Virus record (IMG/VR): IMGVR_UViG_2645727743_000001
Span: 1-6,833 of that record
Direction: 5' to 3' (one strand)
Length of the DNA stretch: 6,833 nucleotides
Source of the DNA: a virus
Taxonomy: Duplodnaviria > Heunggongvirae > Uroviricota > Caudoviricetes
Part shown: positions 3,533 through 6,387 of the stretch, in pieces
Layout: each line of letters begins with the position of its first letter
How positions within the stretch are numbered: position 1 is the first letter of the stretch
Program-made: the position numbers and the translations under genes
The notes under the pieces: model-generated
Databases searched by the model: none
What the model was told of the DNA's origin: nothing
Seen by the model: the letters and a program-made list of their open reading frames with translations, nothing else

Positions 3533-3724
3533 TTAAAGACCTGCCGGGATTTCGTTATTATCCATGTGAATAACTTTATCGACCGGATAGCAGTTACCGG
3601 GAATTTTTTGTTCTGCTGCGGCAGCCATGCATTCTTTCATTGAACCGTAAATGTCAATAACCATGTCAACAGGCTCGCCAGTATTAAGAAAAACAGTCAG
3701 AGTGAGGGCAATAGTAGTATTCAT
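3533..3724 (-). CDS. ydfD: YdfD-like small lysis protein (63 aa, N-terminal hydrophobic segment)
   Basis: The ORF track gives 3533..3778, but the supported start is the internal ATG at 3722-3724, preceded by SD AAGGA (8-nt spacer) and overlapping the dicB stop in an ATGA arrangement. Product MNTTIALTLTVFLNTGEPVDMVIDIYGSMKECMAAAAEQKIPGNCYPVDKVIHMDNNEIPAGL is 63 aa, the length and position of Qin YdfD. Confidence 0.75.
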   Translation of the reverse strand: MNTTIALTLTVFLNTGEPVDMVIDIYGSMKECMAAAAEQKIPGNCYPVDKVIHMDNNEIPAGL

Positions 3725-3909
3725 TGCCAGTATCCTTTTTGCATCGGGCGTAAACGTGCCAGCATTGAAAGAATGCATATTTTATTTAATAGCTCCCGTT
3801 CGTGTTTTCTCTTATTAATGGCATCTTCAGTAAATACAGGGTTACTGATTCTGACACCAATTTCAAAACAACCTTCAGACGTATTGACGTTTGGTAATAA
3901 CGTTTCCAT
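3721..3909 (-). CDS. dicB: Cell division inhibitor DicB (MinC-activating, 62 aa)
   Basis: The ORF track gives 3721..4005, but the internal ATG at 3907-3909 has SD GAGGA 7 nt upstream. Product METLLPNVNTSEGCFEIGVRISNPVFTEDAINKRKHERELLNKICILSMLARLRPMQKGYWQ is 62 aa and matches my memory of DicB. It lies about 185 bp downstream of the DicF-like terminator, as in the K-12 dicB operon. Confidence 0.8.
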   Translation of the reverse strand: METLLPNVNTSEGCFEIGVRISNPVFTEDAINKRKHERELLNKICILSMLARLRPMQKGYWQ

Positions 3910-4092
3910 TATCGCGTCCTCAACAATGAATTTTGTGATGCGGTGCCTGGTGCCTCCAGGTGACGTTAACCAGTTAATAATTAACGCCGGATACAGAGAA
4001 CCCACCCATAAGAACCAATACGGAAGTCAACTGGCCTTTTTAACTGTTCCGCGTGCGCTGAGCCGCATTCACCGCATCACAAAATGCACTTT

Positions 4093-4150
4093 AAAAGGTG
4101 CGGGTATCATGGGAAAAACAAAACGGATACCCGCCAAAAGGTAATCAACA
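4093..4150 (-). ncRNA. dicF: DicF-like sRNA, divergent variant (boundaries approximate; 3' end set by hairpin plus U4)
   Basis: Minus-strand sequence TGTTGATTACCTTTTGGCGGGTATCCGTTTTGTTTTTCCCATGATACCCGCACCTTTT. It contains a 9-bp perfect stem (GCGGGTATC at 4134..4126 pairing with GATACCCGC at 4108..4100) followed by ACC and TTTT (4096..4093). It shares TTTGGCGG..TATC..GTTTT with the K-12 DicF sequence as I recall it, and sits in the expected position between ydfC and dicB. The 5' end is not determinable from sequence. Confidence 0.4.
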
Positions 4151-4480
4151 TGGGTTGTTGCAGCGGGGTTGTCACTCAGGCGTATGGTCAACCTGACAAC
4201 CCGGTGGACATTTGCGAGGAACGGAGAACCCCCGCCATACTTACCGCCGCGCCATTTCGCGGAGTGCCACAACCGGAAGCGCACGGTCGACGAAAATTTA
4301 ACGACAGGCTATCTATGAACCAACCACCTCGCCGTGCGCTTTCGCGTTATGCCCTGACTTTTCAGGGATATATTCTTTCTGTAAACTGTCAGTGCCGGAT
4401 ACTCACCCGTGTCCGGCGCACGCACTCCACCTCACCCGTGGAGAACTCCTTAATTACCAACCCTCAGGAGGGTGAAATTT

Positions 4481-4672
4481 ATGACACAAGAAGAAAAAGT
4501 AATGTTTCTTATGCGCCTGGCTGTGGAAACCTTTAACGCCCATTGCCAGGTGCCCCTTTCACTATCTCACGTTATTTCTCTTGCTACCGAGCAAATGGGG
4601 GAAATTGACGCCATTTACAATACATTTGAAGCATTCCTGGATAAGAAGCTTATGGCAGAGAAGCGTCAATAA
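4481..4672 (+). CDS. Hypothetical 63-aa protein, convergent with and overlapping the 3' end of the 201-aa cargo gene
   Basis: ATG at 4481 is preceded by a strong SD AGGAGGG (4466-4472) with an 8-nt spacer; the ORF track begins at the upstream GTG at 4472. Product MTQEEKVMFLMRLAVETFNAHCQVPLSLSHVISLATEQMGEIDAIYNTFEAFLDKKLMAEKRQ is non-repetitive and reads as helical. No competing long minus-strand ORF spans 4285-4649. No family recognised. Confidence 0.45.
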   Translation: MTQEEKVMFLMRLAVETFNAHCQVPLSLSHVISLATEQMGEIDAIYNTFEAFLDKKLMAEKRQ

Positions 4673-5255
4673 TCCTCATTACCCATCGTAAATTTACAGA
4701 AGTGGGCTTGATGTTGTGTTTTTCAAGCTCGCTCTTCATGATTTCCAGCAGCTTTGAGCTGATAATAAACAAATCAGGTGCATCGTTATTATTTTTATCC
4801 GCATCGTCTTTTTTCGTTTTTAACTCTTGCGGTGAATGTTCGAAAGCAACTTGCAGGGTATTATTTTTAACATCCACAGAGCTTAAAATATGTGCATATG
4901 GATGTGCTATTGTGCGCCCCTGTAAATTTGCATCGTTTTCTAAATCTTTTGATTTCAACAGAACATCAGCAAGACTCTGAATCATGCAGAGATAATCAAA
5001 AACAGTTGCCGTTTCTGTTCTGATTGCTGAAATAACATGACCATTCAGGCAAACAGAAATTACCCGTTCATCAATATCGTTTTCCTGTTTTTGATTATCA
5101 GAACCATATAGCCCTGAAAAAGCATTGCGCACATTACGAACCATATTATCGATGGTTTCTTTTTTGGTGTATGCCGGGTCAATTTTCACCAGACTATCAC
5201 CGAGTGTCGTTGCAGCAATTATCTGGATTTCTTTTGGTAAATCTTTAAATTCCAT
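4650..5255 (-). CDS. Hypothetical 201-aa soluble protein, low-GC cargo gene inserted in the dicB operon
   Basis: Intact ORF with SD GAGG 6 nt upstream of ATG at 5255, starting 22 nt after the ydfC-like stop (operon-coupled). Sampled 60-bp lines give about 33-42% GC versus about 57% in the ydfE gene. No transmembrane segment or catalytic motif recognised; there is a D/K/N-rich linker (KKDDADKNNNDAPD). Confidence 0.75.
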   Translation of the reverse strand: MEFKDLPKEIQIIAATTLGDSLVKIDPAYTKKETIDNMVRNVRNAFSGLYGSDNQKQENDIDERVISVCLNGHVISAIRTETATVFDYLCMIQSLADVLLKSKDLENDANLQGRTIAHPYAHILSSVDVKNNTLQVAFEHSPQELKTKKDDADKNNNDAPDLFIISSKLLEIMKSELEKHNIKPTSVNLRWVMRIIDASLP

Positions 5256-5277: not shown

Positions 5278-5496
5278 TTAACGTGGGTATGTAATCATTC
5301 TGGCAATGCTTAATGCCGCTGCTTTTTCCAGATTGGTGATATCCTGCTCCAGAGCGGACAGATTTTCAGCCTGCTTAGCCCTGGCTTCATTGGCCCATTT
5401 CAGGTCCTGCGCAGCCTTAATTTTCTGGTGCATCCACTCATAAAGTTCATCATCGGTATAGTCTGGCGCGATGATGACGGGTTCTCGTTTCTGCAT
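5278..5496 (-). CDS. ydfC: YdfC-like small prophage protein (72 aa)
   Basis: ORF MQKREPVIIAPDYTDDELYEWMHQKIKAAQDLKWANEARAKQAENLSALEQDITNLEKAAALSIARMITYPR with SD GAGGA 6 nt upstream of ATG at 5496. Same length and operon position as Qin YdfC. Confidence 0.7.
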   Translation of the reverse strand: MQKREPVIIAPDYTDDELYEWMHQKIKAAQDLKWANEARAKQAENLSALEQDITNLEKAAALSIARMITYPR

Positions 5497-5979: not shown

Positions 5980-6387
5980 TTATTTTATTGATTTATTTTT
6001 ACGCGCTTTAAGCATTTCTTCGAAGAGTTTGTTGAAGTTTTCTACTCTTGCGCGCATTTCAGACAGCAAGGCTTCCTGCTCGGAAGATGGAAGAGCATCG
6101 AATAATTCGATCAATTCTTTGTGGTTGGGAGTTAGCTCTGTTTCCACATGAAGTTCTTGTGCAGGCACTGGTGCCTTGTCTTCGTCACCAAACATTAGCC
6201 ATGTAGGTGAGCACTTCAGAGCATCCGCTAAAGCAAACAATCGTTTTCCGACTGGCTGGGTTTCGTCTCTTTCCCATTGTGAAATTGTGACGTGAGCAAC
6301 TCCAGCGAGGCGCGCAGCTTCTCGTTGTGTTAAGCGTAATTCTTTTCGTCGCGCCAGAACTCGCTGGCCTAGGGTTCTTGTATCCAT
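5980..6387 (-). CDS. dicA: HTH XRE-family repressor DicA (135 aa), the CI-like immunity repressor
   Basis: ORF MDTRTLGQRVLARRKELRLTQREAARLAGVAHVTISQWERDETQPVGKRLFALADALKCSPTWLMFGDEDK...EMRARVENFNKLFEEMLKARKNKSIK. It has the same length as K-12 DicA and shares CSPTWxxFGDEDK and EMRARVxNFNKLFEE with it (from memory). Divergent from the dicC-like gene. Weak or absent SD. Confidence 0.85.
   Translation of the reverse strand: MDTRTLGQRVLARRKELRLTQREAARLAGVAHVTISQWERDETQPVGKRLFALADALKCSPTWLMFGDEDKAPVPAQELHVETELTPNHKELIELFDALPSSEQEALLSEMRARVENFNKLFEEMLKARKNKSIK

Follow-up and report, generated by a model that had tools for sequence, protein, structure and literature searches.

How does a small prophage gene that faces against an entire operon obtain its own transcript, and do the RNA hairpins directly upstream of it take part? 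The case considered here is a 63-aa ORF (4481-4672, plus strand; WP_052931385.1, hypothetical protein) that faces against dicB, the cell-division-inhibitor operon of its prophage. The window, as we call the whole 6,833-nt stretch of DNA that was analysed, is the early-left region of a Qin/dicB-type lambdoid E. coli prophage and is 99.8% identical to strain E300082. Its minus strand carries an HTH repressor (5980-6387), the ydfA-like, ydfB and ydfC genes (5278-5496), a 201-aa ORF (4650-5255) and dicB (3721-3909; Pfam DicB, E 4e-37), after which a DUF1482 gene, an exonuclease, xis and int are listed, with about 570 nt of noncoding DNA between the 201-aa ORF and dicB. The 63-aa ORF is convergent with the 201-aa ORF, which it overlaps by 23 nt, and its orientation opposes the early-left ydfABC-dicF-dicB operon, so it needs expression signals of its own. 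The original prediction had placed twin hairpins directly upstream of this ORF, and the ORF proved to be a real small gene (PHROG 2605, E 1e-17). We propose that the hairpins belong to the 5'-proximal leader of its plus-strand mRNA and may stabilise or insulate the expression of a variable small gene, a reading that we find plausible and hold tentatively.

Hairpin 1 (4392-4419) forms an 11-bp stem on the plus-strand RNA (4392-4402 / 4409-4419; arms 4394-4402 / 4409-4417 according to a repeat finder) beneath the loop UCACCC, and is part of a constant block found in all classes of the region. Two of its pairs in the window are G.U (4393.4418 and 4400.4411); the commonest variant has a third (4401.4410), and 4402.4409 is added in some variants. 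Its plus-strand fold reaches -19.3 kcal/mol (z -5.68), a stability attained by 0 of 200 shuffles. Hairpin 2 (4425-4443), which occurs in class-1 leaders only, has a 6-bp CUCCAC/GUGGAG stem with the loop CUCACCC and folds at -8.3 kcal/mol (z -3.40; 1 of 200 shuffles as good), and the two hairpins jointly reach -29.3 kcal/mol (z -6.05; 0 of 200 shuffles). The GCCGGA/TCCGGC core of hairpin 1 had been placed correctly at 4394-4399 / 4412-4417, in agreement with the sequence and the repeat finder, and the CTCCAC/GTGGAG stem described as lying shortly downstream is present at 4425-4430 / 4438-4443. A 10-nt direct repeat, CTCACCCGTG, occupies the top of each hairpin: copy 1 lies at 4402-4411 as predicted, whereas copy 2, previously assigned to 4429-4438, is 2 nt off and actually runs from 4431 to 4440. 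The repeat itself is marginal against chance (2 matches with 0.34 expected; 12 of 200 shuffles reach 2).

Several known kinds of element do not account for this structure. No terminator-like site was found at 4392-4443 on either strand, and the tails that follow the hairpins (GCACGCAC on the plus strand, ACUGACAG on the minus strand) hold no U run, for which reason a Rho-independent terminator was rejected. The RNA repeats of Type III toxin-antitoxin systems were likewise set aside, there being only two 10-nt copies and no tandem array. None of the Rfam 15 covariance models matched on either strand in a position overlapping 4392-4480; the only Rfam matches were an STnc100-like one below its gathering score, described further on, and two at chance level, all of them elsewhere. 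The hairpin sequence was also absent from all papers reached by a full-text literature search. The hairpin element is undescribed, with neither an Rfam family nor an annotation, and in kind it looks like an ordinary leader structure.

The block is far more widespread than the gene it precedes in the window. Of 5426 complete E. coli genomes, 3555, K-12-like ones included, matched the first 133-149 nt of a 4330-4680 query at 92-96% identity, and only 8 had the 63-aa ORF itself. Copies per genome range from 1 to 8 with a median of 1, in line with the number of lambdoid prophages. More than 120 viral contigs were recovered with a search pattern whose anchor lay outside the hairpins, and they yielded 57 distinct versions of the region in four arrangements. 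Class 1 has the order hairpin 1, hairpin 2, CUCCU, Shine-Dalgarno (SD) sequence and plus-strand ORF. In class 2, hairpin 1 is followed by an unrelated 9-bp hairpin (GACCACACG...CGTGTGGTC), a different SD-masking segment (CTCCATT...AATGGAGGA or CCUC:GAGG, in a place equivalent to 4446-4450) and other plus-strand ORFs; the three-hairpin layout is kept and the 10-nt repeat is missing. Class 3 ends at the second repeat, with hairpin 2 truncated, and has a minus-strand ORF only, with no plus-strand partner. In the K-12 type the entire cassette is missing between CCAACC and TTAGC...GTTGG, the latter lying in the window just past the start of the 201-aa ORF, and in the K-12-like strain 5A the block sits between the ydfC stop and DicF.

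This comparison of the four arrangements indicates that hairpin 1 and the sequence leftward of it are constant and that the leader from hairpin 2 onward is gene-specific. Module boundaries lie directly past hairpin 1 in class 2, at repeat 2 in class 3 and at CCAACC in the K-12 type; another follows the SD. In three loci (L013, L073 and L085), exactly 29 nt have been lost between the copies of CTCACCCGTG (equivalent to 4412-4440), so that both hairpins are gone; these deletions sit in different sequence backgrounds, and L013 retains a plus-strand ORF. Most copies of the block, those of the K-12 type and class 3, have the promoter-like element described below and hairpin 1 and no plus-strand ORF, which implies that some of the block may have a different purpose or survive only by descent. 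Sequence diversity is low throughout the noncoding region, and conservation is no higher in the hairpins than in the DNA on either side.

Two features of individual arrangements were observed in passing. Within class 2, the tip of the second hairpin, at the equivalent of 4425-4443, occurs in opposite orientations on a stem that is kept (for example, CGCTGTCACG in L035 and L041, CGTGACAGCG in L047 and L072), the pattern expected from hairpin-tip inversion. The cargo-less K-12 arrangement contains a weak terminator-like site on the plus strand (1677-1694 of the K-12-like locus L002, equivalent to about 5300-5317), about 140 nt downstream of hairpin 1 and antisense to ydfC; it could bound a small antisense RNA, and it is within chance expectation.

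Homology between loci is collinear up to the SD region (AGGAGGGUGA, also given as AGGAGGGTGA; 4466-4475, 5 nt before the ATG at 4481), and different plus-strand ORFs then begin 3-8 nt after it. Conserved upstream of many different ORFs, the shared SD precedes at least 11 unrelated small plus-strand ORFs (57-101 aa) across prophages, which fall into nine PHROG families with function unassigned in all. With at least 11 unrelated ORFs behind one leader and SD, the leader seems to act as a fixed expression cassette for a slot whose gene varies. Relatives with 98%, 87-89% and 47% identity all keep the 63-aa frame open. So does an Edwardsiella phage, whose homologue has an unrelated leader with a weak SD likewise inside a hairpin. 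Between close relatives the leader differs at 2-3 of 89 nt and the ORF at 9-11 of 192 nt, and the leader is still about 85% identical where the 63-aa protein is only 47% identical. Close relatives of the ORF show about 7 non-synonymous changes to 1 synonymous, an excess that could mean diversifying selection, on small counts.

The partner gene on the other strand varies in step. The convergent minus-strand ORFs have a common N-terminus of 50-65 aa (MEFKDLP...) and C-termini that change with the plus-strand ORF, the 201-aa ORF of the window being built in the same way from a conserved N-terminal module and a variable C-terminus, and the 3' ends of the pairs usually overlap by 11-44 nt (in the window, L003, L004, L170 and many IMG/VR loci). 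Searches of Pfam, PADLOC and PDB gave no significant match for the cassette proteins, and their 44 homologs are all named 'hypothetical'; one borderline Pfam match, to GhoS, concerned an unrelated cargo protein from L055. An AlphaFold2 model of the 201-aa protein had a mean pLDDT of 46, too poor for fold comparison. In the manner of a moron, the gene is present or absent between collinear phages (the K-12 type has no cassette, and other prophages have other ORFs). A moron, an autonomous gene within a phage operon, would also have a promoter and terminator of its own and be expressed from the repressed prophage; here a terminator scan found no plus-strand terminator after the 63-aa ORF, and the promoter search gave only a weak promoter-like element with an 8/12 match.

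This element consists of a -35-like TTTTCA (4359-4364) and a -10-like TAAACT (4382-4387; TAAAGT in some relatives) at a 17-nt spacing. At the 8/12 threshold it was the sole promoter-like pair that recurred at one position, doing so in 5 of 6 divergent representatives; the relaxed scan printed nothing for the class-2 locus L035, and the standard scan, at 9/12, did not flag the pair, whose match is only 8/12. In one locus (L026), the spacer has been rewritten and a TG extends the -10. In loci retrieved independently of the motif, GTAAA(C/G)TG is conserved, and both the 17-18 nt spacer and positions 4389-4391 vary freely. Hairpin 1 starts 5-7 nt after the -10-like hexamer. No transcription start site or 3' end is recorded at about 1,649,120-1,649,149 of U00096.3 in the Cappable-seq supplements (PMC4782308) or in PMC7815308. 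From these sequence features we infer a weak sigma-70-like promoter, TTTTCA-17-TAAACT, with its start at the base of hairpin 1. Its -35-like hexamer overlaps the loop and 3' arm of an upstream hairpin (CCCUGA/UCAGGG, 4352-4367, plus strand), which carries the only compensatory change of the region, at pair 4353-4366 (C-G in 21, U-A in 6, U.G in 4). Were this upstream hairpin to act as plus-strand RNA, the transcript would have to start upstream of the putative promoter. We also note that it is terminator-like on the plus strand, with a moderately U-rich tail.

If transcription does begin at about 4392-4394, hairpin 1 would form a 5'-terminal stem-loop that would be expected to slow 5'-end-dependent decay. 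Hairpins 1 and 2 would at the same time lock up the C-rich segments CACCC and CUCC, which could otherwise pair with the G-rich SD, so that the neighbouring CUCCU or CCCUC segments would cover the ribosome site only mildly. In ompA-type leaders, a 5'-terminal stem-loop protects against 5'-end-dependent decay, and the present leader resembles the ompA 5' UTR in having a stable hairpin near its predicted 5' end, a second hairpin and then the ribosome site. It differs from that type in that its start is only predicted, in showing no sequence relationship, and in being common to many phage ORFs.

The consensus structure of the leaders is in keeping with this layout. For 31 distinct class-1 leaders, RNAalifold returned the hairpin at 4352-4367, hairpin 1, hairpin 2 and a helix between the anti-SD segment CUCCU (4446-4450) and AGGAG (4466-4470), and pair counting found 95.6% of cells paired. 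The CUCCU:AGGAG helix was paired in 99.4% of cells, with essentially invariant columns on both sides. The RNAalifold consensus for class 2 has hairpin 1 and the second hairpin, with the SD covered by a CCUC:GAGG hairpin; the one-sided changes there number three, each a C to U opposite G. The check that had been suggested, folding and covariation across relatives, thus recovered the stems but yielded no compensatory covariation in the twin hairpins, whose variation among the 31 leaders is confined to one-sided wobble changes. Furthermore, the SD is predicted to be moderately accessible (0.2-0.4): the mean probability that its core is unpaired was 0.41 for the window and averaged 0.34 across 43 leaders, as against about 0.24 after shuffling (0.20 for the window), and for the window leader the SD was more occluded than the native one in 29 of 30 shuffles; these controls are mononucleotide shuffles of the sequence upstream of the SD and serve as a rough guide. 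A native SD that is more open than the shuffled one implies that the hairpins keep C-rich segments away from the SD instead of presenting them to it.

The leader folds far better on the plus strand than on the minus strand. The whole leader has z -4.47 on the former and -0.68 on the latter, and the values for hairpin 1 and the twin unit fall from those given above to -13.5 kcal/mol (z -2.87) and -25.5 kcal/mol (z -2.6), respectively. On the minus strand, the G.U pairs of hairpin 1 turn into A.C mismatches and a 6-bp core is left. Stem transitions tolerated on the plus strand only were seen in 19, 4, 2 and 1 loci, and those tolerated on the minus strand only in 3, 1, 1 and 1 loci; counted as strand-specific alleles, these are 4 against 4. 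Variant density at stem sites is about half that at unpaired sites, and stem variants that break pairing persist, among them G4394T in the K-12-type loci (7), G4398T (5 loci) and a variant in L165. The strand trends therefore favour the plus strand, although, given the 4-to-4 split of alleles and the persistence of disruptive transversions, they are not decisive.

The minus strand has a prominent structure of its own next to the hairpins. A long interrupted helix of about 25 bp (4267-4352) dominates the minus-strand fold and borders the hairpin block; it is more stable on that strand (-38.3 kcal/mol) than on the plus strand (-29.0 kcal/mol), and prophage classes have exchanged its apical region but share invariant arms. 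The 190-nt DicF precursor is reported to get its 5' end from RNase III, and the 53-nt form to be a product of RNase E (PMC10448788). In the K-12-like L002, the point 190 nt before the DicF 3' end corresponds to about position 4274 of the window, in the 3' arm of the helix, and this helix is the likely place where RNase III processes the dicBF transcript. Since the calculated cleavage falls within the helix, the antisense processing site probably adjoins the hairpins and does not lie in them. The suggestion that the element might be a processing site on the antisense operon transcript thus fits the neighbouring helix and not the twin hairpins themselves, whose stems (6-11 bp) are too short for an RNase III site, for which a helix of about two turns is expected, and lie 40-170 nt from the calculated cleavage.

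Nor are the hairpins DicF. They share its operon region, and the block borders the helix that matches the RNase III site of its precursor; however, in related loci Rfam places DicF (RF00039) about 190-240 nt further along the operon strand, at a position that differs from that of the block in L002-L005. The DicF covariance model gave no match in the window (E <=1) or within 3900-4700 (E <=10). Pairing between the DicF seed and the hairpin loops was also considered, and dropped because only 5 contiguous pairs could be found by eye. A survey of EHEC prophage sRNAs (PMC4104026) describes anti-sRNAs at the PR' moron site, which are unrelated to the hairpins.

Side observations concern the neighbouring noncoding DNA. 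The position of K-12 DicF corresponds in the window to 4092-4150 (minus strand), where the sequence is divergent and the single-stranded 5' region different, with a terminator-like hairpin (GCGGGUAUC...GAUACCCGC) and UUUU kept; it could represent either a decayed DicF or an allele of DicF whose seed differs. Further along, a STnc100-like Rfam match (3890-4096, minus strand; 32.6 bits against a gathering threshold of 47, E 2.7e-4) covers the dicB 5' UTR and recurs in L002-L005, and 3944-3990 and 4044-4100 are the most invariant parts of the noncoding stretch. The antitermination hairpins of HK022, put, were rejected as a parallel for the twin hairpins, since the stable fold here is on the strand opposite the early operon and some 1.5 kb separate it from the early promoter.

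On the minus strand, where the hairpins immediately precede the RNase III helix in the ydfABC-dicF-dicB transcript, cleavage would bring them close to the new 3' end of the upstream fragment, and they could instead act there as a REP-type block to 3' exonucleases, a reading we regard as unlikely. The outer stem of hairpin 1 (GCCGGAT...TCCGGC) resembles what we take to be the outer stem of the REP consensus, presumably without the inner stem and the 3' tail of that imperfect palindrome of about 35 nt, and in K-12 the hairpins come about 20 nt after the ydfC stop, just past the 3' end of a gene, where a 3' exonuclease barrier could lie; unlike REP elements, which have hundreds of dispersed chromosomal copies, the block occupies 1-8 places per genome. 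Both hairpins do form on the minus strand with the lesser stability given above, next to a helix that matches the published RNase III site, and hairpin 1 is kept in K-12-type and class-3 prophages that have no plus-strand ORF. Moreover, ydfA transcripts vanish in an rnc mutant, and RNase III processing has been suggested to stabilise the upstream part of the transcript (PMC10448788). Against such a barrier, minus-strand hairpin 1 is reduced to its mismatched core, the whole minus-strand segment is no stabler than shuffled sequence, the minimum free energy fold of the K-12 minus strand prefers another structure over the local hairpins, and the common stem variants break minus-strand pairing; the exchange in class 2 of hairpin 2 along with the SD-masking segment makes sense only on the plus strand. 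That the palindromes and the duplication have no dedicated function, being kept by recent descent in a mosaic junction where the repeats are only substrates for slippage or recombination, seems to us improbable. The uniformly low diversity, with hairpins no better conserved than their flanks, would suit this explanation, as would the module boundaries at hairpin 1, repeat 2, CCAACC and the SD, the 29-nt deletion between repeats in three loci of differing background, the persistence of disruptive variants and stems without compensatory double changes. It leaves unexplained, however, a fold stability unlikely to arise by chance (0 of 200 shuffles), a class 2 in which a different second hairpin and SD masking have been rebuilt at the same positions, a stem variant density about half that of unpaired sites with frequent variants that are wobble-compatible on the plus strand, and a leader retained even beside a downstream ORF that is down to 47% identity.

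Two regulatory roles for the repeated loops fare worse. The original prediction had pointed to complementarity between the loops and the SD, and TCACCC (4403-4408 and 4432-4437) is indeed complementary to GGGTGA (4470-4475) inside the SD, a 6-nt match that is unremarkable as one of 20 inverted pairs of at least 6 nt in 301 nt. It could be the basis of a translational switch that occludes the ribosome site, its alternative fold or pseudoknot bringing CACCC from the repeated loops against GGGUG, where the SD ends on its 3' side, and by geometric reasoning loop 2 and GGGUGA could form an H-type pseudoknot with hairpin 2; we nevertheless consider such a switch very unlikely. In the helix between UCACCC of loop 2 and GGGUGA, 5 of 6 pairs vary among the 31 leaders by breaking only, with no compensation: loop position C4433 is G in 12 of 31 leaders and an SD G is A in 9 of 31, and the variants GAGUGA, GGGGGA, GGAUGA and UGGUGA of GGGUGA have no matching changes in the loops. 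As class 2 also has no repeat and the native SD is predicted to be more open than the shuffled one, the idea that this fold occludes the ribosome site is not supported. The two copies of CTCACCCGTG might instead be the site of a protein regulator, on DNA or on the RNA loops, an idea which takes its appeal from identical 10-mers 29 nt apart, each atop a hairpin, and which we think hardly credible. The loops vary (UCACCC, UGACCC, UAACCC, UUACCC, GCACCC), class 2 and class 3 are without one or both copies, and DNA sites spaced 29 bp fall on different faces of the helix; no candidate binding protein was identified, and nothing was found to support this part of the original prediction.

These results leave the plus-strand leader as our preferred, if tentative, reading, and its genetic setting invites a comparison. 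In pore-forming colicin operons, the immunity gene lies on the opposite strand with its own promoter. The locus is similar in that a small gene in need of its own signals is convergent at the 3' end of a gene of an inducible operon, and in that the partner protein combines a constant portion with a C-terminal one that varies together with the small gene; it differs in that no sequence or family match was found and that neither protein is known to act in toxicity or immunity. The two-gene layout resembles polymorphic toxin/immunity or toxin/antitoxin pairs. A more speculative scheme, which we would call quite unlikely as a whole, is that of an exchangeable convergent two-gene cassette within the early-left operon of dicB-type prophages, in which a constant N-terminus is joined to a swappable C-terminus and every such C-terminus has a small opposite-strand partner gene of its own, usually with overlapping 3' ends. 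The constant promoter-hairpin leader would keep this immunity-like gene on in the lysogen, and hairpin 1 may serve both strands, capping the plus-strand mRNA at its 5' end and shielding the 3' end of the operon fragment left by RNase III.

About two thirds of complete E. coli genomes, K-12 included, carry the block, which has gone without annotation even though the ydfC-dicF interval around it is much studied. Should the leader reading hold, these prophages would carry an unrecognised promoter and 5' UTR that fire against the dicBF operon and could express accessory genes at the time of lysogeny. The genes dicF and dicB are toxic; in the cargo-less K-12 arrangement, the same leader could yield an RNA antisense to ydfC or oppose leaky dicF/dicB transcription. 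The variable-gene slot itself holds many small phage proteins, which are candidates for functions in phage-phage or phage-host conflict.
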